Made by a program: the position numbers and the translations under genes. The notes below the pieces were generated by a model, which saw nothing but the letters and a program-made list of their open reading frames with translations, was not told the origin of the DNA and made no database searches. A stretch of DNA of 64,000 nt from Vicugna vicugna (taxonomy: Eukaryota). The DNA lies in contig MU058103.1 of assembly GCA_013265495.1 (NCBI GenBank), positions 1,000,870 to 1,064,869 of the forward strand. The letters run 5' to 3'. Positions within the stretch are counted from its first letter, which is position 1, and every line of letters starts with the position of its first letter. Shown one piece after another: positions 1-63,700 of the stretch.

Positions 1-2190
1 TTAGAGAGGACCCTGTACCATTTCTTCTACGTTGAGTATTGATGAGCTCTTAACTTTTTTACATGTCTGAGAAGTTCTTCTCTCTCCTATTCTAAGTGAT
101 ACTCTTGCCAGGTGGAGCATCCTACATGCAGGCTTCTTCTTTTCAGCACTGATTATATCACGCCACTCACATCTAGCCTGCAAAATTCCTGCAGAAAAAT
201 CAGCCGAAAGCCTTATGGCAGTTTCCTTGTATATAACTTTTTTTTTTTTAAACATTGCTGCTTTTGGAATTATCTGTAAGTTTTGCTGCTTTAATTATGA
301 CATATCTTGGTGTAGAACTCTTTGGGTTCATCTTGTTTGGGTTCATCTCTGTGTTTCCTCTACCTGGATATCTGTTTCCTTCATCAGGTTAGAGAAGTTT
401 TCAACCATATGTTCATCAAATACTTTTTTGACCCCATTCTTGCTCTCTTCTCCTCCTGAGACCTCCAAAATGTCAACGTTGCTTCGTATTATGCCGGAGA
501 TCTATTCAACTGTTCACTTTTTAAAAATTTTTTTTTTCTTTTTTCTGTTCTGATTAATTTCCATTATTCTGTCTTCCAGATCACTTCTGTGTTTTTCTCT
601 ATCACCTGCTTTGCTGTTAATTCCTTCTAGTTTATTTTTATTTCAGTGGTTGTATTCTTCTGTTCTCACTTAAAAAAAAACTATTTTCTAGCTCCTTGTT
701 AACATTCTCACTGTGTTCATTTATTCCTATTTCAGTTAGCATTCTTATTACTACTGCTTTGAATTCTTCATCTGGTAAATTCTTTATTTCATTATTTGTG
801 TTTTCAAGGTTTTTCTCTTTGCTATTTCGATTGAGGCTAATTCCTTTGTCTTCTCACTTTGCTTGATTTCCTTTATGTTTATGAAATTAGGTGAAACAGT
901 TGACTATTGCACCCTTGAAAAGTGCCCTTATATGAGAGTGCCCATCTACCATCCGTATGTGTCCAGTGGTTTTGGTGGGAGAGTTGGATTTGATGTGTAC
1001 TGAAGTCACATTTTCCCTTGGAGTGTGCTGGCAGTTAGGTGTTAGGTGTTAGGGCTGGAGATGGAGAGTTAGGACTAGAGCCAGGTGTGAGCCAGGGCTT
1101 CCCATCTGCTCAATGGCCATCACTTCCCTGTTGGGGCAGGGTCATGCCCCAAGTTGCTGGAGAAGAAATGCTGAAGTTTGAGTTTGAGCCGGCTCTGTTC
1201 CTTTTGAGTGTGAGTGAACCTTCCTACAAGCCCTGGCGCACTTGTCTCAGTGGAGAGCAGTGTTGGAGCAATGTGGGCTGTGAGGGTTCTCAGCACGTGA
1301 CAGGGTGAGGGTTGCCGTGGCCCAGCCACAGAGCTCAGGGTTGCTTCTGACTTGTGGCTTGTGCACAGGCCCCTACCCCATTCAGATGCCGCTTTAGGTC
1401 TGCGTCTCCCCTCTCCCTTACCGCCAGTCTCTCCTCTTAGCCTCTGCCATTTCCCGCCTGATTTGGAGCTGCACCACAGAGCGGGTAGGGCTGTGTGTGC
1501 TCTCTGCATGTGTCAGGGAGTGGGCTCTGGTGGTTTGGCTGCAGACAGGTCAGGGGTACTTCTAATGTGCTGCCTGTTTAAGTGCCAGAAATGGCTGTCC
1601 CTGCCTTGCTCCAAATCCATTTCAGATCTCAGCCACTTCTGTATCTCAGAGCCAAGTCTTTCCTCAGTCACGGTAGCCCTCGCTCCAGTGTGGAGAAGCG
1701 ACGTGAAGTCAGCAGGGCTGAAGCGCTGGCTGGGCTCAGGCTAGGCATATGCCTGGGCCGTCACAGGAAACCATTCACCTGCTCAGTTTCACTGCCCTCT
1801 CTTCCCTACTTTGTGAGCCATCAAACATGTGCGCACTCCTACTGAGCAGAGTCCAAGCTTCCCACAGTCCATCTGTTCGTCCCACTGACCGCCCCCCAGC
1901 CAATGGGCTCATCTTCTCTGTGTTGGATGCCAGAACTGAGGTGCCCTATATGTGGCTCAAACTGCTCACTCCCCAGGAAGTGTCTCCCCCCACGGGCATA
2001 GGTCCTGACTTGATCTCTTCCCTTAATATCTGATTCCGTTTGAATCTTTGAGCCTTGGTTATGCAGGATTCTTTCTGCCAGTTTCCAGTCAGTTTCCAGT
2101 GAATATTGTTCCTCATATAGATGTATATTTGATGTGTTCATGGGTTAAGATGAGTTCCATATCCTCCTACTCCACCATCTTAGTCTCGTC
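1..2190 (-). mobile_element. L1 5' portion (5'UTR plus decayed ORF1), continuing beyond the left edge
   Basis: ORF 1..255(-) contains AIRLSADFSAGILQARCEW, typical of the L1 ORF1p C-terminal domain. The minus strand near 2190 starts ...AAGATGGTGGAGTAGGAGG..., a YY1-like L1 5' end. Confidence 0.9.
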
Positions 2191-3529: not shown

Positions 3530-3972
3530 TTTTTTATTTTAATTTTTAATTGAAGTATAGTTGATTTACAATGTTAGATTCAGTTGTACAGCAAAGTGAT
3601 TCAGTTATACATACATACACATACATATATATTTTTTCTTTTCAGATTGTTTTCCATTATATGTTATTACAAGTAATTGAATATAGTTCCCTGTGCTATA
3701 CAGTAAGGTCCTTGTTGTTTATCTATTTTGTAAATAGAATATATGTCTGTTAATCCCCAACTCCTTATTTATTTCTCCCCACCCTTTCCCCTTTGGTAAC
3801 CGTAATTTGTTTTCGATGTTCATGAGTCTGTTTTTAGTTTGTGAATAGAATTTGTATCATGTTTTTTTTTTTCTTAGGTTTCACATATAAGTGATATATG
3901 ATACTTGTCTTTCATTCTTTTTTATGGATGAGTAGTATTCCATTGTGCATATGTGTGTGTGTGTGTGTGTGT
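3530..3972 (-). mobile_element. 5'-truncated lineage L1 3'UTR fragment, ending at a (TG)n run
   Basis: T-rich tail then TTGAAGTATAGTTGATTTACAATG...ATAGTTCCCTGTGCTATACAG, shared with the copies at ~16340, ~45360 and ~62630. Confidence 0.88.
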
Positions 3973-13380: not shown

Positions 13381-13589
13381 AATTGTCTTGCATCTGTTTC
13401 ATAGTTACTCTGATCAACCAGATGAAAACCTATTTTCTAAAAATAGAGTACATAACTGCGTTATGGGATTGTTGTGAAGATTGCGTAAGATGTGTGTATA
13501 TACATGCCAAAGCCCCAGGTATATAGGAAGTCCTTAAAAAAAAACAAAACAGATCCGTGTCTTCACATATACCAGACTGTTGGCTTCTT

Positions 13590-13882
13590 TTATTGATTGA
13601 TTGATTGATTGATTGAATATTTTTATTTTATTGAGATATAGTCATTTTACAATGTTGTGTGAGATTCCAGTGTAAAGCACACTTCTTCAGCCATAAGTGA
13701 ACATACATACACTCATTGTCACATTCTCTTTCGCCATGAGCCCCCAAAAGATCCTGTATATATTTCCCTGCGCTACACAGTACAATCTTGCCCATTTATT
13801 CTACATTTGAAATCCCCGTCTGTCCCTTCCCACCCCCCATCCCCCCAGCAACCACAAGTCTGTATTGTATGTCTATAAGCCG
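13590..13882 (-). mobile_element. Young 5'-truncated L1 3' end with a 15-bp TSD and a (TTGA)n tail
   Basis: GACTGTTGGCTTCTT at both 13575-13589 and 13883-13897. Same family as 34755-34989. Confidence 0.9.
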
Positions 13883-16326
13883 GACTGTTGGCTTCTTGAG
13901 TGTAGATATTTGTGTTACTCTTGTTTGCATCCACTCAGACTCCTGGTATAGTGCTTTTCCAATAATGACTGACTACCACATGATGGCAAAATAGTAAACC
14001 TTTTAGAAAGAATATTAGAAATCAAAAAGAAAAAGCCTAGAAGACACGTTTAACTTCTAGAATCTCAATTGGAATTTCTCCTATTTCCTCTTTTGACTTA
14101 GATACCATAACTCCAAGGGGTCCGTAGGGGCTGCTTTGTGCATTGCTGAAGGCCATCCAAAATCCAATTTGTTGTTGTTGCTTTTGGAATGAAACATCAT
14201 CCTGCACTTGCAGAATTATCCTTTAAGAACTGCAAAGTGCTTTTCAGATGAAGATGCATCCTCCTTATGAACCAGAAGGGGAAATGGAGGAACTGGATGA
14301 TTTATATGGCTGCTGGCAGAGGAAGAGTGAATTGGCAAGATACGAAAGAATCAAACACCAGAGCCTCCACCCCAGCCTACAGTCATTCTGTGCTGAAACA
14401 GTTAACTTTCTTCTCCTGCAGAATTCCTTGGGATGCAGGTGGATCGCTGGCTTTGAGGCACTTCCTTCACAAGGGTGTAAGGCAGCCCTGAATCTGGGCG
14501 TCTATACCCCATGTTGTCCTTTTGAAAGGCTTTGACTTTGAAGGGTGTCTAGGATGCTCTCTTTAATGAGGAACTTTAATCTACCCTGTAAACTGTTTCA
14601 TCAAACTGCATTTTAAACCAATCAATAATCCCAAGAAAGCATTTCCTCAAGTAACACATTTTAATCATTGTATATGTGTCAGACAAGAAAATAGATCCCA
14701 TGGTGAATCAGACTGAGAACAAGTCAGAAAAATTCCCTATCTCTGAGAGGGAGAAGAAAGGATTTTTCTGAATGGCTATAATACAGTGGAATTATTTGTT
14801 GTACTGTGGTATGATGGTATAGTCAATATGATGGGGTCAAATTTAGGAATTATCAAGAATCTTTGAAAACAGCTGTCCATGAAGCCCTGTATGCATGGTT
14901 TAGCTATGAACCCTGAGCAGAATAAATCAAAGCTTCCATGCCTGTTTCTGGTAGTATCCTTTCAAGCTTTAGAAATAGAAGAAAATTCTTCAGTAGTCCT
15001 GATTGCCTGCGCAGTGTGTGTACTTCCTGGTAGTATTAGTCCCCTATAAAAATTACAGTGTTCCTATCAGTTTGTTATTGTGAGGACTGAATGAGCATAG
15101 AAAACAATCTTTGGCTGGGGTTAAGTTCACAGGCAGCACAAGGTACACACACTATGACAGTAGTCTTCTTCTATCCTATTACCTGCAAGACTTAGAGACA
15201 CACCACATAATTCAATTAGTTAATCAACAAATAATGATTTATTTGGTGTCAGTGTTATGCTTACTCCCATATTGTTAGAGAGCTCTAACAATAGTAGTTG
15301 ATCCATGATTAGCATTTGCTAAACTTGATGAATTTGTGAATGAATACATGAATGGAAGACTTGATAAAATCATTGCCTCTGGAAAATTGCTTTGCCTTTT
15401 CCAAAACCTTTATTGAGGCTCCCCTTCCCCTTTAAAATCCTTGCTATTCTCCTACCATGCCAGACATCTTAGACCTGCTGTCCTGTATGCCTTTACCAGT
15501 TCATGCCTGCTGAAAAAAAAAAAACTTTCCCCAAATCACATTTTGTTGTAATTAACTATATATGTCTGTCTCCCCTACCAGATTGTAAGACCCTCACTAG
15601 CAAAAACTGCTTCTCATTCAGGGCTTAACACAATAACTAGAACAAATTAAGTGCTTTATAAACTTATTAATTCGTTCATAAATTTGTATACTTATGTATT
15701 AATTAAGACTCTGTATGAGCCACTATATCATTGACAAGGTCCTATCACAGTCCCCAGCACTCTGTAGCTACTTAATGTAACTTTCCAGTGTTAATATATT
15801 GAAGAATAGACTTGTGCACTTACTCGATCCATCCACTAAGAAAAAAATAAACTCTATGTGTGTAACTGGTAGCTTGCTGGGGCAGAAGTGAGATTCTTTA
15901 AGACAAATGATAAAGAGGAATTGCTCACTTATTCCTGCCCTTTTGTGGTATTAAAATCTTAACTCTGTTATACAGGTGTTCTATTGTCTATGTATCTGGC
16001 TAGCCAGCTAACTAATAACAATCAGGTAAGTCTTTCTATCTTGGAGATTTATGATAAGGATCACAATACAGGTTGAAAACCAGTTATCAATGATGAGTGA
16101 CTGTCAATCTATCATATTGTCTTCTGTACAAGGAGGCGGGATGCGAAGTGTTTGAAGTATGGAATCAAAATATAGAAAACACTCAGTAAACTTTAATTGT
16201 CATTACTTGTCATGCATTTTTAACAGCAATTTATAAAGGATCAAGAAGATTCTGATATTTCTAGAGTTTCTTCTGGTGGTAACTAGGGTGCTCTTATAAT
16301 TTATTAACCATATTGAGATTCTTTCC

Positions 16327-16680
16327 GTTTTTTTTTCTTTTTTTTAAATTAAACTATAGTCAGTTTACAATGTAGTGTCAATTTCTGGTGTACAGCATAA
16401 TGTTTTAATCATACATATGCATACATATATTCGTTTTCACATTCTTTTTCATTATAGGTTACTACAAGATATTGAATGTAGTTCCCTGTGCTATACAGAA
16501 GAAACTTGTTGTTTATCTGGTTTGGTGATGATTTTCTTGTATTTTTGAAGCAAGAGATATTTTGCCAAAGTTCAGTAGGAATTCTGCATAAATTGTTCCA
16601 TTTTTGTATTTAATTTTTGATGTGTTCATGGGAGAGGGAGAGCTGTGTGTCCTTCCACTCTGCCATCTCGGCAGTCTTTC
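16327..16680 (-). mobile_element. Chimeric mini-L1 (L1 5'UTR start fused to L1 3' terminus) with poly(A) and TSD
   Basis: 14-bp TSD TTGAGATTCTTTCC at 16313-16326 and 16681-16694. 16519-16680 is homologous to the 5' end of the L1 at ~2060-2190. 16330-16518 is homologous to the 3' ends at 62630 and 45360. Confidence 0.85.
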
Positions 16681-16699
16681 TTGAGATTCTTTCCTTTTT

Positions 16700-19689
16700 A
16701 ATTAAACATTTAATTTGGAGATAATTGTAGATTCACGCATGATTGTAAGAAGTCATACAGAGAGTTAACTTGTACACCTTATCTATTGCCCTTTACCCAT
16801 CTTCCCTTATCTACCTATCATAGATAATTGTCTATATTATCTTGCAAAAATATAGTAAAATATTACAACCACACCATAGATACAGTAGAGATACAGTTCT
16901 AGCATCACAAGATCTCTCATGTTGTCTTTTATAGACATACCTCCTCCCTTACCCCACAACATCTGCATCCCTGATCCCTGTCAACCACTTATCTATTATC
17001 CATTTCTATAATTTTGCCTTTTTAAACATACTATATATATAGAATCATATAGTGTGTGATCTTTGGGAGGATAGACTTTCTTTACTCAGCATAACTTCCT
17101 GGAAATTATTTCAAATTTTATTGCATATAAATAATCAGTTTTTTTATTGCCATGTAGTATCCCATGGTATCGATGTACTATGGGTCATTTAAACATTCAT
17201 CCTTAAAGGACATCTTTTTTCCCACATTGTGGTTATTAAAAATAAAGCTGTTATGAACATTTGTCTCCAAGTTTGTGTGTGAACAAAAGTTTTAATTTTG
17301 GGGGGAATGCTTCCAAAGGTGCATTCGCAGGGTCTGATGGTAGTTGCATGTTTAGTTTGATAAAAAACTTTCAAACTTCCATCCAAAGTGGGCATACCAT
17401 TGCATATTCTTACCAGTACTGTATGAGTGATCCCATTGTTCCATATCTTTGCAGTATTTATTGCTATTACTTTTTAAAAGTCATTCTTGTCAGTGTGTGG
17501 TGGTATCTTATTATGTTTTTAATTGGCATTTCTCTAATGGCTAAGGACATGGAACATCTTTTTATGTGCCTGTTTGTCTATTATCTTCAGTGAAATGTAT
17601 GATCCTTTCTTTTGCACATTTTCTAACTGGATTGCTTGATATTTTTATTAATTAAGTTTTGATGTTCTACATAAGAATTTTTGTCACTTATGTGTTTTGC
17701 AAATATTTCTCTTCCAGTCTGTAGCTTGTCTTTTCATCCTTTTAACAGGATTTTCTTCAAGCAAAAGCTGTTTTTCTTTTGATGAGGTCCAATTTATCAG
17801 TGTTTTCTTTTGGTGTCAAGTTAAGAACCCTTTGCTTGACCCTAGATGCTGTAAATTTTCTCTTATTTTTTTTCTATAAGTTGTACAGTTCTATGTTTTA
17901 CATTTAATATCATGATCCATTTTAAGTTATTTTTTCTGTAAGCTGTGATACAGGTAAAGGTTCATTTTTTTGTCCAGTGGATGTCCAGTTCCCCTGCACC
18001 ATTTGTTAAGAAGGCTGGCCTTCCCCTTTTAAATTTATTTTGCATCTTTGTCAAAAACAGTTGGGCATACTTTTGTGTCTATTTCTGTGTTTTCTGTCCT
18101 GTTACATTGGTCTATGTATCTATCCCTTCCCCATATTATTTTAATAGCTGTAGTGATATATTAGGCCTTAATATCTGGCACAATGATACTTCTCACTTTA
18201 TATTCTCTTTCAAGATGATTTTAGGTAATATAGAGATTGTCTTTCCATATGAATTTTAGAATAAGCTGCCTATGTCTGAGAAAACAAAACCAAACAAAAA
18301 TACTGACATCTTGATAGAACTATATTAAACCTACAGATAATTTGGGGAGAATTAGCATATATAACTCTGTTGAATCTTCAAATGAATACAGTATGTATAC
18401 CATTGTAAATGGTATTGTGCTTTTAACTTCAGTTTCCACATGTTCATTCTTGGTATATGGAAATGCACCTTATTTTGTATGTATTTGTGTGTATGTTGAT
18501 CTTGTATCCTGAAATTTTGTTGAACTTGCTTATTGAAGTAGCTTTGCAGATCCCTTGGGTTTTTCTCTGTAGGCAGTTATGTCATCTGCAAGCAGGGACT
18601 AATTTATTGCTTCCTTTCCAATCTGTATATCTTTAATTTATTTTTCTTGCCTTATTGTGCTGCTATAATTTCCAACACTACAGAATAGCGGTGGTGAGAG
18701 TGAGTATCCTTGTCTTGTCCAAATCTTAGAGAAAAAGCATTCAGTTTTTCTACATTAAGTGTGATATTAGCTGAAGGCTTTTTTGTAAGTTATTATTTAT
18801 CAAGTTTAGGAAGTCTCCTCTATTCCTAGTTTTCTATTTTTTTTTAATAATAGATGAATGTTGAATTTTGTCAGTTGTTTCTGTGTCACTGGGTACAGTC
18901 ATACAATTTTTCTTCTTTAATCTTTTGATATGATGGGTTACATTGATTGATATTTGAATGTTGTATGAGTCTTACATACCTAGCGTGAGTCCCTCTGAAC
19001 CATGGTGTATAATTTTATACGTTATTGGATTTGATTGGCTAATATTTTATTGAAGGATTCTGCATCTAAGTTCATCAAATACATTATTCTGTAGTTTTTA
19101 TTTTTTTGTATATATATATATATATATATATATATGGTTTGGTCAAAGTTACAATGACCTTATAAAATGAGAAGTGTTCTTCTTCATTTTCTGGAACAGA
19201 TAAGAGTAAAATTGCTATTAATTCTTTAAATGTTTGGTGAAATGTTAAGTGATGCTTTTTGGGCCTGGAGATAGATTTCAGGTGAGTGGGCACTTTTTAA
19301 TTACAAACTTGATTTGTCGTGTACCATTAGGAGAAGGTCGTCTGTTTGGATTTGGTTCAGTTTTGATAGTTTGTATTTAGGGAAATTGGTCAATTTTTCC
19401 CAAGTTGTTGAACTTAGGAGCATAAATTTGTTCATAGTGGCTATGGGATCTGTTTCCCCGATTTCATTCCTGACATTAGCGGTTGAGGGCTTCTCTCTCC
19501 CTTCAGGCCTGCTAGAGGTTTATCAATTTCACTGATTTTTTTACAAAGCAGTATCTTTTGGTTTTGTTGATGTTGCTCTATTATTTCCTTACCTTCAATT
19601 TCATTAATTCTGCTCTTATTTTGACTACTTGTTTCCTTCTGTTTACTTTAGATTTATTTTTCCTCTTCTTTTTCTGGATTCTTGAGATA
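16700..19689 (-). mobile_element. Old L1 (L1MC1/2-like) 3'UTR plus decayed ORF2
   Basis: GAGATAATTGTAGATTCAC..TGTAAGAA 3'-end signature and decayed ORF2 (TFKELIAILL). Contains (TA)13 at 19109-19135. Confidence 0.85.
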
Positions 19690-27473: not shown

Positions 27474-27630
27474 ACATATATATGTATATATGTGTATGTA
27501 TATGTATATATGTGTAAATATATAGAAATATAAAAATGCAAATACATAAAATATATAATATGTAAATATATAGAAATGGAAAGTTTATAAAATATTTATA
27601 TATTATATGTAAACGTATATAAATGTAAAT
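27474..27630. repeat. AT-rich (TA/TG) low-complexity tract
   Basis: Direct reading. Confidence 0.85.
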
Positions 27631-28934: not shown

Positions 28935-29125
28935 AAAATAGATACACAACAAGGACCTACTGTATAGCACAGAGAACTGTATTCAATTTCTTGTAATAGC
29001 ATATAATGGAAAAGACTCAGAAAAGAAAAAATATATATGTATGTATATGTATAACAGAATCGCTTTGCTGTATACCTGAAACTAACATTGTAAATCAACT
29101 ACACTTCAATAAAAATTTTTAAAAA
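28935..29125 (+). mobile_element. Short lineage L1 3' terminus
   Basis: CAAGGACCTACTGTATAGCACAG...TTGTAAATCAACTACACTTCAATAAAA. Confidence 0.88.
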
Positions 29126-33319: not shown

Positions 33320-36300
33320 AAGAATCTTTTGTGTTTCCATACAAATTTTAACATTTTTTGTTCCAGCTTTGTGAAAAAAATGTCACTGGTAATTTGATAG
33401 GGATTGCATTGATTTGATATCTTGCCTTGGGTAGTATGGCCATTTTAACAATATTGATTCTTCCAATCCGAGAACACAGTATATCTTTCCATTTGCTTAT
33501 GTTGCATTCAGTTTCTGTCATCAGTGTCGTATAGTTTTTGGAGTACAGGTCTTTTGCCCCCTTGGGTAGGTTTATTCCTAGGTATTTCATTCTTTTGGGT
33601 GTGATGGTAAATGGTATTTTTCCTTAATTTCTTTTTCTGCTATTTCATTGTTGGTGTACAGAAATACAACTGATTTCTTTATATTAATTTTGTATCCTGC
33701 AACTCTACCAAATTCATTGTTGAGTTCTAGTAGTTTTCTGGTCACCTCTTTAGGGTTTTCTATGTATAGTATCATGCCATCTGCAAACAGCGGCAGTTTT
33801 ACTTCTACCTTTCCAGTTTGGATTCCTTTTATTTCTTTTTCTTCTCTGATTGCTGTGGCTAGGACTTCCAAAACTATGTTGAATGAAAGTTGTGAGAGTG
33901 GGCGTCCTTGTCTTGTTCCTGATCTTATAGGAAATGCTATCAGTTTTTCCCCATTAAGTATGATGATAGCTGTGGGGTTGTCATATATGGCCTTTACTAT
34001 GTTGGGTATGTTCCTTCTGTGCCCACTTTCTGGAGAGTTTTCATCACAAATTGGTGTTGAGTTTTATCGAAAGCTTTTCCTGCATCTATTTGGATGATCA
34101 TATGTTTTTTATTCTTCAGTTTGTTAATGTGGTGTATCACATTGATTGACTTGCAGATATTGAAGAATCCTTGCATCCCTGAAATGAATTCCACTTGGTC
34201 ATAGTGTATGATCTTTTTAATGCATTGTTGGAGTAAATTTGCTAGTATTTTGTTGAGGATTTTTGCATCTATGTCCATAAATGGTATTGGCCTGTAATTT
34301 TCCTTTTTTGTGGTATCTTTGTCTGGTGTTGGTATCAGGGTGATGATGACCTCCTAGAATGAGTTTGGAAGCATTCCTTCCTCTGTAATTTTTTGGAATA
34401 GTTTCAGAAGGATAGGTGTTAACTCTTCTCTACATTTTTGGTAGAATTCACCTGTGAAGCCTTCTTGTCCTTTTGTTTGTTGGGAATTTTTAATTACGGA
34501 CTCAATTTTAGTACCGGTAATTGGTCTAACCCTACTATTTCTACCTGGTTCAGTTTTGGCAAATTTCACCTTTCTAAGAAATTGTTCATTTCTTCTAGGT
34601 TGTCCGTTTTAGTGGCTCATAGTAGCCTTTTATGATCCCTTGTACTTCTGTGGTGTTTATAACTTCTCCTTTTTCATTTCTGATTTTATTAATTTGTGTC
34701 CTCTCTCTTTTTTCTTGATGAGTCTGACTAAAGGTTTATCAATTTTATCTTTCATATGTGGAATCTAAAAAACAAAAACAAAAACAAACAAACAAACAAA
34801 AACAAAGCATAAATACAGGACAGAAATAGACTCACAGACAGAGAATACAGACTTGTGGTTGCCAGGAGGGTGGAGGGTGGGAAGGGATAGACTGGGATTT
34901 CAAAATTGTAGAATAGATAAACAAGATTACACTGTATAGCACAGGGAAATATACACAAAATGTTATGATAACTCACAGAGAAAAAAAAATTTATCTTTCA
35001 AAGAACCAGCTTTTATTTTCAGTGATTTTTTTTTTTTAGTATCTATTTCATTTATTTCTGCTCTAATCTTTATGGTTTCTTTTCTTCTACTAACTTTGGG
35101 TTTTGTTTGTTCTTATTTCTCTAGCTGCTTTAGGTGTAAGGTTAGATTGTTTATTTGAGATTTTTCTTGTTTCCTGAGCTAGGCTTGTAATTGCTATAAA
35201 TTTCTCCCTTAGAACTGCTTTTGCTGCACCCCAGAGGTTTTGGATTGTTGTGTTTTTGTTTTCATTTGCATCAAAGCATTGTTTGATTTCCTCTTTGATT
35301 TCTTCACTGATCCGTTGGTTGTTTAGTAGCATATTGTTTAGCCTCCACGTGTTTGCACTTTTTGCAGTTCTTTTTCTTGTAGTTGATTTCTTGCCTTATA
35401 GCATTGTGGTCAGAAAAGATGTTTGATATTATTTCAGTTTTCTTACATTTGCTGAGGCTAGCTTTGTGGGCCAGCATGTGGTCGGTTCTGGAGAATGTTC
35501 CATGTGCACTTGAGAAGAATGTGTATTCTGTTGCTTTCTCATGGAATGCGCTATAGATGTCAATGAGGTCCACCTGGTCTAATAGGTTATTTAGGGCCTG
35601 TATGTCCTTATTCATTTTCTGTCTGGATGATCTGTCCATTGATGGAAGTGTGTTGTTAAGGTCCCCCACTATTATTGTGTTACTACCAACTTCTCCTTTT
35701 ATGTCTGTTAGCAATTGCCTTAGATATTGAGGTGCTCCTGTGTTAAGTGCATATATATTTATAATTGTTATGTCTTCTTCTTTGATTGATCCCTTGAGCA
35801 TTATGCAGTATCCTTCTTTGTCTCTTGAAACACTCTTTATTCTAATATTTATTTTGTCTGATATGAGTATTGCTACTCCAGCTTTCTTTTGGTTTCCATT
35901 TGAGTGGATTATCTTTTTCCATCCCCTTACTTTCAGCCTGCATGTGTCTCTAGCTCTAAAGTGGTTCTATTGTAGACAGCATATATGTGGGTCTTGTTTT
36001 TATATCCATTCAGCCAGTCTGTGTCTTTGGTTGGAGCTTTTAATCCATTTACACTTAAGGTAATTATCAATATGTATGTTCTTATTGCCATTTTGTTAAT
36101 TGTTTTGGGTTTGTTTTTGTAGATCTTTTTTTTTTCTCTCTCTCTCCTTGTGGTATGATGACTAGAGAAGTTCCTTTAACATTTGTCGGAAAGCTGGTTT
36201 GTTGGTGCTGAATTCTTGTAACTTCTGTTTATTTTTTAATTTAATTAAGTGTATCATTTAAATATTTCATGCCACTCTGTTCTAGCCTGTAGAATTTCTG

Positions 36301-36525
36301 CTGAAAATTAGGTGATAACCTTATGGGAGTTTCCTTATATGTTATTTGCTGCTTTTGTCTTGCTGATTTTAATATTTTCTCCTTATTCTTAATTTTTTTC
36401 AGTTTGATTACTGTGTGACTCGGTGTGTTCGTCTTTGGGTTGATCCTGTGTGGAACTCTCTGTGCTTCCTGGACTTAGGTGACTATTTCCTTTCCCAAAT
36501 TAGGGAAGTTTTCAATTATTAGCCT
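33320..36525 (-). mobile_element. L1 internal fragment: ORF1 C-terminus plus ORF2 endonuclease and RT, frameshifted
   Basis: ORF2 start near 36091 (MAIRTYILIITL). EN motifs IIVGDLN and SDHNAI. RT motifs [12 protein letters not shown] and LFADGMILY are spread over several frames. Confidence 0.95.
34755..34989 (+). mobile_element. Young L1 3'UTR fragment nested in the older L1, with an 11-bp TSD
   Basis: TTTATCTTTCA at 34744-34754 and 34990-35000. Opposite orientation to the host. Ends in A9. Confidence 0.9.
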
Positions 36526-36939
36526 TGATGTTTGTTATCAGTTAATCAATCAGTCTATAGAGTAGCAATTACATGTGGATGATGCCTTCTTGGAAAGGTG
36601 GGCACATATTGCTTTGTGTTTCTTTAAGTGACTTGAGTAATCCTAGCTCAACATTTCCATCCTACTCCTCTTCTAGACCCAGCAGAGGAAGTATATGCCT
36701 TGAAAGTGTCATTTTATTGCTGTTAGTACATATTGGCCAGGACTATGTTGTTTGATATATTTTAACTACCAATTGATCTTTGGATTATTACTCTGAAACA
36801 ATTCTATCACAAAGACAATATTTACATTTTTAATTGATGATAATTTAGAAATCTTAAAAAGAACATACCATATAACATCTACACATACATTTTATGAACA
36901 CATGTGCACACATGCACACACACACACATTATAATGTTG

Positions 36940-44704: not shown

Positions 44705-47700
44705 TCGTTTTATTATAAAAAAAACTTTAAATGTACGAAAATCTTAAGAAGTTTGCATTGAACATCTGTATTCTTCATCTAGATTCTACATTTAAAAGTT
44801 TGCTATACTTACTTTATCAACTGCCTGCTTTACTATCCAGTCCTTTATCCATCTGGTAATCCATTCTATTATTGGTGCGTTTTGAAGTAAATTTTAGGTA
44901 TTAGCTCACATTCCCCTGAATAGCTCAGTTTACATGTTGCTAGCAGGAATACAAAAGTATTTACAACTTTTTTCTTATGTAAATGTATATACAATGAAAT
45001 ATACAAATCTTAAGTGTCCATTAGCTGAGTTTTAATAAATGCATGCAGCATCCCAGCTTCTATCAAGTGTAAAATATTTCCATGACTCCATGAAGTTTCC
45101 TCATGCCATCTGCCGGTCAGTTCCTTGCCCCTGCTCTCCAGAGATAATCATTGTTTTGATCTTATTCTCATCACAGATTTCCATTTTGTTGAGAATTTCT
45201 TAAAAATGGAATCATACATTATGTACTCTTTTGTATAAGATATTGTTCACTTTATATAATACGCTAACGGTTTACCTAGGCTTATGTCTCTAATAGTATT
45301 TTTTTAAGTGCTGAGTCATATCTCATAAATATACTGTAATTTGTTTGTACATTCTTTTTTTTAATTGAAATATAGTCAGCTATAATGTGTCAATTTCTGG
45401 TGTACAGCACAATGTCCCAGTCATGAATATATATATATATATATATTCATTTTCATATTCTTTTTCATTAAAGGTTATTGTAAGATATTGAATATAGTTC
45501 CCTGTGCTATACAGAAAAAACTGTTTTTTGTTTTATATTTTTATATATAGTGGTTATCATTTGCAAATCTCAGACTCCCAAATTTATCCCTTCTTACCCT
45601 CTTTCCCTCAGTGACCATAAGATTGTTTACTATGTCTGCAAGTCTGTTTCTCTGTTGTAAATGAGATCATTGGTGTCCTCCTTTTTCTTTTTTTTCCTTA
45701 GATTCCACGTATGAGTGATATCATATGGTATTTTTCTTTCTCTTTCTGGCTTATTTAGAATGACGATGTCCAGGTCCATTCATGGTGCTGAAAATGACAT
45801 TTTTATTCTTTTTTATAGCTAAGTAGTATTCCATTATATAAATATACCACAACTTCTTTATCTAGTCATCTGTTGATGGGCATTTAGGTTGCTTCCATGT
45901 CTTGGCTATTGTATATAGTGCTGCTATGAACATTGTGGTGCATGTATCTTTTCAAATTAGAGTTTCCTCTGGATATATGCCCAGGAGTGGGATTGCTGGA
46001 TCATATGGTAAGCCTATATGTAGTTTTTTGAGGAATCTCCATACTGTTTTCCTAATGGCTGCACCAAACTATATTCCCACCAGCAGTGTAGGAGGGTTCC
46101 CTTTTCTCCATACTGTCTCCAGCATTTATCACTTGTGGACTTTTTAATGGTGGCCATTCTGACTGGTGTGAGGTGATACCTCATTGTAGTTTTGATTTGC
46201 ATTTCTCTGATAATTAGCGATGCTGAAAATTTTTTCATGTGCCTATAGGCCATTCATAAATCTTCTTTGGAGAATTGCTTGTTGAGATCTTCTGCCTATT
46301 TTTGGATTGGATTTTTGTTGTTGTTGTTATTAAGTTGTATGCACTGTTTATATATTCTGGAAATTAAACGTTTGTCAGTTGTATCATTTGCAAATATTTT
46401 CTCCCATTCTGTACATTGTCATTTTGTTTTGTTTATGATTTCCTTTGCTGTGCAAAAGCTTAAAAGTTTAATTAGGTTTCATTTGTTTATTTTTGCTCTT
46501 ATTTTTATGGCCTGGATAGACTGCCCTAGGAGAGCACTGCTAAGATTTATGTCAGATAATGTTTTGCCTATGAGTTTATTTTTGTGTATGGTGTGAGGGA
46601 ATGTTCTAATTTCATTGATTTATATACAGCTGACCAGTTTTCCCAACACCACTTGCTGAAGAGACTGTCTTTTCTCCATTGTGTATTTTTGCCCCCTTTG
46701 TTGAAGATTAGTTGACCATAGGCCTGTGGGTTTATTTCTGGGCTCTCTATTGTGTTCCACTGATCCATATGTCTGTTTTTATGCCAATAACATGCTGGTT
46801 TGATTACTGTAGCTCTGTAGTATTGTCTGACATCTGGGAGGGTTATTCCTCCAGCTTCTTTCTTTTTCTTCAATATTGCTTTGCCAATTTTTGGTCTTTT
46901 GTGATTCCATATAAATTTTAGGATTATTTGTTCTAGTTCTGTGAAGAATGTCCTGGGTAATTTGATAGGGATCTCATTAAATCTGTTGATTGCCTGGGGT
47001 AGTATGGCCATCTTAACAATATTAATTCTTCTAGTCCAAAAGGATGAGATAGCTTTCCATTTCTTTGAGTCATCTTTAATTTCCTTAATCAATTTTTTAT
47101 AGTTCTCTGTTATACACTCTCCTTTTGATGGATACTTTGGCTGCTTCCAATTTTTAGCTATTTTTTCTAAACCTACTATGAGCATTCTTACACAAGTCCT
47201 TTTGTGAACCTATGTTTCCATTTTTGTAGGAGTGGAATCACTGGGCCTTAGGGCAATTTAGTTCAAGTTTAGAAGAAACTGCCTAAACTTCTTTTTTTAG
47301 GTGATTACACCCTTTTGCATTCCCACCAACAACTTGTGACGTGAGAGAATTCTAGTTAACAACCTCATCAACATTGATGTCATCAATTTTCCCCCCTAAA
47401 GAGAAAAAGTATTTTTTTAAGTTTTGTTTTCTTTTTCTTCCATGATGATTGAGATATAATCAATATACAACAATGTATAAGTTTGAGGTATACAGCATAA
47501 TTATTTGATTTATATCCATCATGAAGTGATTATTACAATAAGTTTGATGATAAATCTTTTTAATTATAGTCATTCTGGGGGAAATAAATTGGCATTTCAT
47601 TGTGATGACAAATGATACTAACCACTTTTTCTTATACTTACTGACCATCTATACATCTTCTTTTGTGAAGTGACTTTTAAGTTATTTGCCAACTTTCATT

Positions 47701-62599: not shown

Positions 62600-62975
62600 T
62601 TTATATATTTATTTAAATTTTTTTATATTGAAGTATAGTCAGTTTACAATGTTGTCTCAATTTCTGGTGTACAGTATAATGTTTCAGTCATACATACACA
62701 TACATATATTCCTTTTCATATTTTTTTTTCATTGCGGGTTACTACAAGATATTGAATATAGTTCCCTTTGTTCAACAGAAGAAAGTTGTTGTTTATCTAT
62801 TTTATATATAGTAGTTAATATTTGGAAATCTCAAACTCCCAATTTATCCCTTCCCACCCTCTTTCTCCCTGGTAACCATAAGTGTGTTTATGATGTCTGT
62901 GAGTCTGTGTCTGTTTTGTAGATAAGTTCATTGTGTCTTCTTTTTTCTTTTTTTAGATTCCACATGTGAGTGACA
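62600..62975 (-). mobile_element. Lineage L1 3'UTR fragment
   Basis: TTGAAGTATAGTCAGTTTACAATG...TTAGATTCCACATGTGAGTGA. Confidence 0.9.
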
Positions 62976-62976
62976 C

Positions 62977-63700
62977 TTTTCTTTTTAACTGAAGTATAGT
63001 CAGTCAGTTTACAATGTTGTGATAATTTCTGGTATACATCATAGTGATTTATACACACACACACACACACACACACACATTCCTTTTCATATTCTTTTTC
63101 ATTGTAGGCTATTACAAGGTTTTGAATTCAATTCCCTGTTCTATACAGTAGGACCTTATTGCTTATCTATTTTAGATATTGTTGTTTATCTGCTATATAT
63201 ATATATATATATAAATTATATATATATTTATATATATATATATATATAAAATCTATTTTGAGTATCTGCAAATCCCAAACTCCCAATTTATCCCTCCCCA
63301 CTCCCTTCCCCCAGTAAACATAAGTTTGCTTTCTCTATCTGTGAGTATTTCTGTTTTATGAGCAAGTTTATTTGTATCATAATTTAGATTCCACATATAA
63401 GTGATATAATATAATATTTATCTTTCTCTTTCTGGCTTACTTCACTTAGTATGACAATCTCCAGGTCCATCCATGTTGCTGCAAATGGCATTATTTCATT
63501 CTTTTTTATGACTGGATGGTATTCCATTGTATATGTATATTACAACTTCTTTATTCAGTCATCTGTCTATGAACATTTAGGCTGCATCTGTGTCTTGGCT
63601 ATTGTAAACAGTGCTGCTATGAACACTGGGGTGTGTGTATCTTTTCAAATTAGAGTTCCCTCCAGATATATGCCCAGGAGTGGGATTGCTGGATCATATG
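62977..63700 (-). mobile_element. Second lineage L1 3' fragment, in tandem, containing (AC)13 and (TA)n
   Basis: A new T tail plus GAAGTATAGTCAG at 62977-63003, running to GGATTGCTGGATCATATG. Confidence 0.9.

Follow-up and report, generated by a model that had tools for sequence, protein, structure and literature searches.

An ORF-less L1 retrocopy in a vicuña contig, joining an L1 start to an L1 3′ end and most likely derived from a spliced RNA

In a 64,000-nucleotide stretch of the Vicugna vicugna genome (contig MU058103.1 of assembly GCA_013265495.1, positions 1,000,870 to 1,064,869; hereafter the window), we examined an L1-derived element at 16313-16701 in which the start of an L1 5′ untranslated region (UTR) is fused to the end of an L1 3′UTR, without either of the two L1 open reading frames (ORFs). 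The evidence supports its being an ORF-less 5′ plus 3′ L1 unit that was inserted by the L1 machinery, and supports the recurrence of its join in a second, diverged sequence. The element is a well-marked L1 retrocopy, most likely of spliced origin, and represents a variant, more extreme, of the kind known as spliced integrated retrotransposed elements (SpIREs). That it is a SpIRE-like copy of a spliced L1 RNA which was moved in trans is, in our assessment, probable.

The insert between the flanking repeats is 354 nt long (16327-16680) and is read on the minus strand. It is enclosed by an exact 14-bp target-site duplication (TSD), TTGAGATTCTTTCC, at 16313-16326 and 16681-16694, which has no third occurrence on the plus strand of the 64-kb window. 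With one mismatch, the duplication lengthens to 19 bp (16313-16331 versus 16681-16699, 18/19 identical) and therefore reaches a TTTTT/AA site at 16695-16701, which matches the L1 endonuclease nick consensus (PMC5860796; here and below, articles are cited from parts of their text). With the tandem L1 ends at 62.6-63.4 kb set aside, exact, non-simple 14-mer repeats at most 500 bp apart are found at three places in the whole window, namely the present one (16313/16681), the TSD of another L1 (13575/13883) and an AT-rich repeat at 27513. The tail comprises 17 T in 18 positions on the plus strand (16328-16345), and a sequence scan of the 354-nt element found no AATAAA. An earlier note on this DNA had described a TSD, a T-rich tail and a nick site bracketing about 350 bp, and all three are in place. 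The parts of the unit are as follows.

16313-16331, unstranded: left TSD copy, exact over 14 bp up to 16326, with the mismatch at 16327; overlaps the tail
16328-16345, minus strand: A-rich tail, 17 A in 18 positions, without an intact AATAAA before it
16346-16516, minus strand: end of the L1 3′UTR, about 170 nt; nearest subfamily at 62608-62800 (87%) and 45352-45529 (86%)
16517-16518, minus strand: junction AG, putative splice acceptor, found at the same place in the intact 3′UTR
16517-16680, minus strand: start of the L1 5′UTR, 164 nt, homologous to 2027-2180 and repeated in reads
16681-16699, unstranded: right TSD copy, matching the left copy in sequence
16695-16701, plus strand: TTTTT/AA, L1 endonuclease-type nick site by sequence

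The right flank (16700-16900) resembles the 3′ terminus of an older, identically oriented L1M-type element, and the insert may have landed in the A-rich tail of that older copy.

The last 190 nt of the element consist of the end of an L1 3′UTR and the tail. The identity of the 3′UTR part is 87% with 62608-62800 (152/174), 86% with 45352-45529 and 70-82% with five other L1 ends in the window. The first 164 nt align with 2027-2180 at 61% (E 2.5e-8), with a local score of 64 against a maximum of 39 among 500 shuffles; of 480 window tiles, 2027-2180 is the best match to this part, the element itself excepted. We assign 2027-2180 to an L1 5′ end because ORF1-like sequence lies 1.6-2 kb downstream of it (Pfam Transposase_22, E 1.7e-4, 22.3 bits with a cut-off of 22.4), and this older element is 66% identical to the ORF1 remnant at 36263-36515. 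Both halves of the earlier proposal are thus confirmed, that is, a start aligning with the L1 5′ end near 2190 and a switch, at an AG (16518-16517), to the last ~190 nt of the L1 3′UTR. No other L1 5′ end is present in the window besides 2027-2180; the L1 at 33.6-36.5 kb is 5′-truncated in ORF1. The older element itself occupies 1-2190 on the minus strand, with an old 5′ end, a 5′UTR of ~1.3 kb and a broken ORF1 that leaves the window at its left edge.

2027-2180, minus strand, for reference only: 5′ end of an older L1, with homology to the 5′ part of the element, reading CAG/ATA at the aligned join (2030/2029)

Near the start of the element, a word that we take to be YY1-like is present, as the earlier note had expected of an L1 5′ end, but only in the decayed form GAGATGGCAG (16669-16660, minus strand) when set against the consensus. 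The element has no coding capacity of L1 type: its longest stop-to-stop frame is 66 amino acids, and the matches of this frame are confined to spurious translations of L1 3′UTRs. Among the protein matches considered (7 proteins and the best 150 of 524), only the 3′UTR frame was represented, and the 5′ half appeared in 0 of 155. ARAGORN found 0 tRNA genes in the element, so far as a tRNA head is concerned, and an Rfam search of the element returned 0 matches up to E 1. The RNA fold of the element has a z of -2.4, which stems mostly from the 3′UTR and was not used as evidence.

The join was then followed in public sequencing data. Of 24 listed runs, four (X1, X15, X17 and X19) were mapped to 16100-16900 at 88% likeness; X1 is a DNA run, and the status of X15 as RNA is only guessed. 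One X1 contig spans 16494-16900 with a single difference, which establishes that the join is real and not an assembly artefact, and another X1 contig spans the left flank. Mapping passed over the tail region, a repeat, and no single contig crosses the whole element. A second sequence with the same join was found in X15, whose record 16 differs from the window at 12 of 100 bases over 16486-16585 and extends from the AG for 31 letters into the 3′UTR and for 67 letters into the 5′ part. Since coverage by X15 is zero on the flanks of the element (16100-16342 and 16748-16900), record 16 represents a different sequence that shares the join, be it a second locus or a spliced RNA. The idea that the junction might recur, raised in the earlier note, is supported by this record. 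Moreover, an X1 piece carries a non-window allele at 16524, 21 letters from its end, and hence reaches over at least 16504-16544, an extent read from distance-to-end values that, for X15 record 16, reproduce the ends exactly. This piece crosses the join by at least 13 nt, less than the 31 letters that we ask of a bridging sequence.

These observations bear on the possibility that a full-length L1 was inserted at this locus and its middle later lost by a deletion in the DNA. The TSD and the tail, taken alone, are compatible with such a history, but the second sequence with the same join is not what it leads one to expect. Furthermore, the share of the sampled words of 15800-17200 that is present is 0.86-0.88 in 14 of the 24 runs, which come from eight studies and carry six organism labels, and X1, the only one of them that was mapped, has the joined form. 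(Word shares below 0.2 in a run were not used as evidence, the mapped runs excepted.) We therefore regard a later deletion as very improbable.

We next consider the acceptor side of the join. The AG at 16518-16517 (minus strand) is present at the same place in the intact 3′UTR. In 4/4 runs, the loose ends of 3′UTR contigs begin behind 16518, and their majority letters were used as the 3′UTR sequence upstream of the AG. In three of the four runs, this majority contains TACTAAC on the strand of the element, with the branch A at -19; it is formed by 339 contigs in X1, 102 in X17 and 67 in X19. There is no AG between this A and the join, which thus lies at the first AG after the heptamer. In X15, the majority of the row at 16518, formed by 171 contigs with a median of 15 letters, is without TACTAAC, which is present in the X15 row at 16510; the X19 row at 16510 (15 contigs) has a variant of it. 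An intact copy of the 3′UTR in the window, at 62798, reads TATTAAC with the branch A likewise at -19, and no branch-point-like motif was found within 45 nt in the copies at 3724 and 63168.

62608-62830, minus strand, for reference only: intact L1 3′UTR, where TATTAAC precedes the same AG (branch A at -19)

TACTAAC is the optimal branch point, branch points usually lie at -18 to -40, and the acceptor is found by scanning to the first AG. Counting both strands, the window has 7 instances of TACTAAC, or ~0.001 per 23-nt stretch, a post-hoc figure in that the branch-point test was devised after the motif had been seen. Judged by these letters, splicing gains support from the heptamer at -19 and from the position of the join at the first AG behind it. 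The caveat in the earlier note that the putative acceptor has no polypyrimidine tract is correct, and TACTAAC with its branch A at -19, in three of the four runs, answers it. As a side observation on the 3′UTR copies, the region 62600-63700 holds two tandem L1 3′ ends on the minus strand, of which that at 62978-63200 contains an expanded (TA)n stretch and, at the acceptor region itself, the word AGATAAACAAC in a short duplication.

Several findings weigh against a spliced origin. On the acceptor side, the loose-end majority has an agreement of just 0.57-0.78, the looser motif yTnAy is common (~0.5 per 23 nt), the acceptor is without a pyrimidine tract, and an L1 3′ fragment at 28935 begins ~6 nt before the same AG. 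Because this fragment is cut off there, the AG may also mark a spot where reverse transcription breaks off. On the donor side, the homologue at 2027-2180 reads CAG followed by ATATTAAG at the aligned join, with no GT, and shares AGATA with the 3′UTR at the join. These shared letters amount to 5 nt, and not to the 2-nt microhomology of the earlier note; taken at face value, the homologue favors a microhomology jump. As to the reads, just one other sequence, X15 record 16, satisfies the 31-letter rule for bridging, with flanks and TSD lying outside its span, and its source, X15, is only guessed to be RNA. Finally, four single contigs join the 5′ and 3′ parts elsewhere, over 16507-16650, 16406-16633 and 16475-16552 in X1 and over 16504-16610 in X15. 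These contigs, in which the letters between the parts are not known and short sides were counted as unreliable, hint at more short 5′/3′ L1 chimeras with different joins.

The donor evidence has to be read with the age of the homologue in mind. Below the shared block, only 50/94 positions are identical without gaps, and the sequence is CpG-poor; such divergence disqualifies it as a stand-in for the parent L1, and it may simply have decayed at the place of the putative donor.

Part of this evidence can be accounted for by a template jump in target-primed reverse transcription, in which the enzyme, having copied ~190 nt from the tail, would have jumped at AGATA to near the 5′ end of the RNA, in cis and with no splicing. 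The CAGATA that the old 5′ homologue shares with the join, the 5′-truncated L1 end at 28935 starting ~6 nt from the same AG and the other 5′/3′ joints in single contigs are all in keeping with such a jump. However, a base-identical join in a sequence that differs by 12% would then call for a strong hot spot, the branch-point heptamer and the first-AG geometry would have no role, and the old homologue is too diverged to represent the parent. On balance, we hold the jump to be distinctly unlikely. The fragment starting at 28935 extends to 29124 and belongs to another subfamily; no TSD of at least 8 bp was found around it in the ranges searched.

Pattern matches to the 5′ side of the join in other sequence collections were also considered and rejected: all 18 (4 loci in metagenomes, 1 in prokaryote genomes and 13 in viral contigs, the last with the 5′ block motif) match the element over 31 nt or less and are attributed to chance. 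In viral contigs, the pattern of the 5′ side of the join and the 3′UTR motif each gave 0 loci, and a search of plasmids and phages gave no match.

Under a spliced origin, the element would have formed as follows. Transcription from the L1 start would give a full-length L1 RNA, from which the whole body including both ORFs would be removed as one intron, from nt 164 to the AG in the 3′UTR. This presupposes a GT donor after ...AACCAG in the parent 5′UTR. The product would be a polyadenylated RNA of ~350 nt that codes for nothing, and ORF2 protein would therefore have to be supplied in trans, presumably via the poly(A) tail. The proteins of another L1 would then have inserted the RNA at TTTTT/AA with a duplication of 19 bp. 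Most copies would probably be made anew from full-length L1s and not from one another. What we observed of this route is one insertion with its TSD, A-tail and TTTTT/AA site, the acceptor geometry and a second junction. The suggestion of the earlier note that an RNA lacking both ORFs, whether spliced or jumped, was mobilized stands as regards the L1-mediated ORF-less unit and the recurrent join, but the GT donor is lacking in the sole homologue.

We then turned to the abundance of the two parts. With a single-copy depth of ~36 in X1, the summed depth reaches ~2e5 times single copy over the 3′ part and 8-172 times over the 5′ part (bins 16532-16666; 20-40 times at 16524-16551); summed depth is not copy number, and that of the 5′ part mixes short copies with the 5′ ends of full-length L1s. 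Most of the read depth carries letters foreign to the window at four sites of the 5′ part (16524, 16529, 16545, 16551) and five of the 3′ part. The copy in the window has ~9 private changes relative to the read majority in 157 nt (16396-16552), from which we infer that it is not young. X15 record 16 has the majority letter at all four differing sites of the 5′ part. X15, X17 and X19, taken to be RNA runs, contain repeat words only, with almost no flank words (X19 covers 16802-16900), and their reads do not show transcription of the locus at 16313-16701.

Alternatively, a splicing or deletion event could have created the join a single time, in a master copy with enough of the internal promoter left for transcription, and the other copies would be its descendants in an ORF-less, non-autonomous L1 family transcribed by RNA polymerase II. 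What sets this scenario apart from a repeated origin out of full-length L1s is the way copies multiply; the join itself may have been made in the same manner, and a spliced origin is compatible with it. It fits with the recurrence of the same join in reads and with the retention of the very 5′ start, where the transcription signals of long interspersed elements (LINEs) reside (PMC5786205). Yet the ~9 private differences in 157 nt, together with the majority letters of record 16, are as expected from independent decay from a common source and show no lineage of copies of copies. Over the 5′ part, summed depth stays at just 8-172 times single copy with the 5′ ends of full-length L1s counted in, and in humans SpIREs are dead ends that have lost promoter activity (PMC5860796). 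We consider a master-copy family unlikely. It is equally doubtful that the spliced product of promoter region and 3′UTR became a 350-nt, gene-less L1 parasite which RNA polymerase II transcribes and which amplifies from its own copies, as an L1-clade counterpart of Bov-A and RIME.

The closest known relatives of the element are human SpIREs (Larson et al. 2018, PMC5860796), which account for 131 of 6,609 full-length L1PA1-6 copies and have three fixed joins, all of them in the 5′UTR or at the start of ORF1. Like the element, SpIREs are L1 retrocopies with a TSD, a tail and an endonuclease site from which an internal part is missing; their joins lie at an AG with an upstream branch point, and the same join is found in more than one sequence. 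The likely donor is early in the 5′UTR in both (nt 97 in SpIREs, nt 164 in the element), although it has been demonstrated in SpIREs and is only presumed in the element. Whereas SpIREs retain ORF2, their splices lying within the 5′UTR or entering the start of ORF1, the element has a putative 3′UTR acceptor and has lost both ORFs, so that both proteins would be needed in trans. SpIREs were termed dead ends upon their loss of promoter activity, and the class cut in ORF1 moves only with help in trans (PMC5860796).

In overall build, the element also resembles bipartite LINE derivatives such as Bov-A, RIME, NARTc, the derivatives of Vingi-1_EE and RTESINE/WALLSI3, which retain only the 5′ and 3′ ends of a LINE, have about the length of a short interspersed element (SINE) and are non-coding (PMC5786205). 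Those are made by internal deletion and amplify as families, in contrast to the element, which is L1-derived and likely spliced; the consulted parts of that survey list ORF-less bipartite LINEs for the RTE, Ingi, Vingi and R2 clades only (Kojima 2018, PMC5786205). HAL1 is likewise L1-derived, non-autonomous and in possession of both ends, but keeps ORF1, while the element is without any ORF (PMC5786205, PMC13756887). With the tRNA-derived SINE vic-1 of camels (SINEBase, PMC3531059), the element shares only its nature as a short retroposon; vic-1 is a simple SINE transcribed by RNA polymerase III (Pol III), whereas the element has no tRNA or Rfam match. SINEs in the SINEBase sense have a Pol III head from tRNA, 7SL or 5S RNA, and the head of the element is an L1 5′UTR. 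Finally, chimeric U6/L1, Alu/L1 and mRNA/L1 insertions (Law & Burns, bioRxiv 10.1101/2025.02.02.635956) resemble it in having two RNA pieces, one TSD and an L1 3′ end. The 5′ piece of the element differs from theirs in being the start of L1 itself, and its join lies at an acceptor-like AG in the 3′UTR.

For camelids, the portions consulted of a survey of transposable elements report MIRs as nearly all SINEs and name no such ORF-less L1 element (PMC8605555). Repbase has alpaca L1 entries such as L1-2_Vpa, which is named in a passage of PMC6726744, and the supplements of PMC9252281 and PMC5203782 (one file excepted) contain no such L1 sequence. Among the titles and abstract openings that we searched, none describes an ORF-less spliced L1 in camelids, which is weak evidence of absence. 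Belancio and colleagues reportedly found, in 2006, L1 splices that reach far into ORF2, which could lower the novelty of the element further.

If splicing is the right explanation, a mammalian L1 lineage had a donor (nt 164) and a 3′UTR acceptor which jointly delete the whole coding body, and copies such as this one would be germ-line fossils of a one-step silencing of L1 by host splicing. As the product has retained the tail and the start of the promoter and would take both proteins in trans, its copy number relative to full-length L1 would gauge how leaky cis-preference is toward the ends of L1 itself. In repeat annotation, such copies would likely appear as two L1 fragments and thereby go unrecognized. 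Should copies beget copies, they would constitute a non-autonomous family without ORFs that derives from L1, and the parts consulted of the 2018 survey list no such kind (PMC5786205). Self-amplification, if true, would provide a route through the spliceosome from a LINE to a SINE-like element.

Two further L1 loci were noted in the window. At 33590-36540, on the minus strand, lies a decayed L1 with an ORF1 remnant and Pfam matches to the endonuclease (35307-35966) and the reverse transcriptase (33590-34063); it is cut off in ORF1, and a younger L1 3′ end in the opposite orientation is nested in it near 34750-34990. At 13575-13897, also on the minus strand, a 5′-truncated L1 3′ end of ~300 nt from another subfamily carries a perfect 15-bp TSD (13575/13883) and an (AATC)n-like tail.

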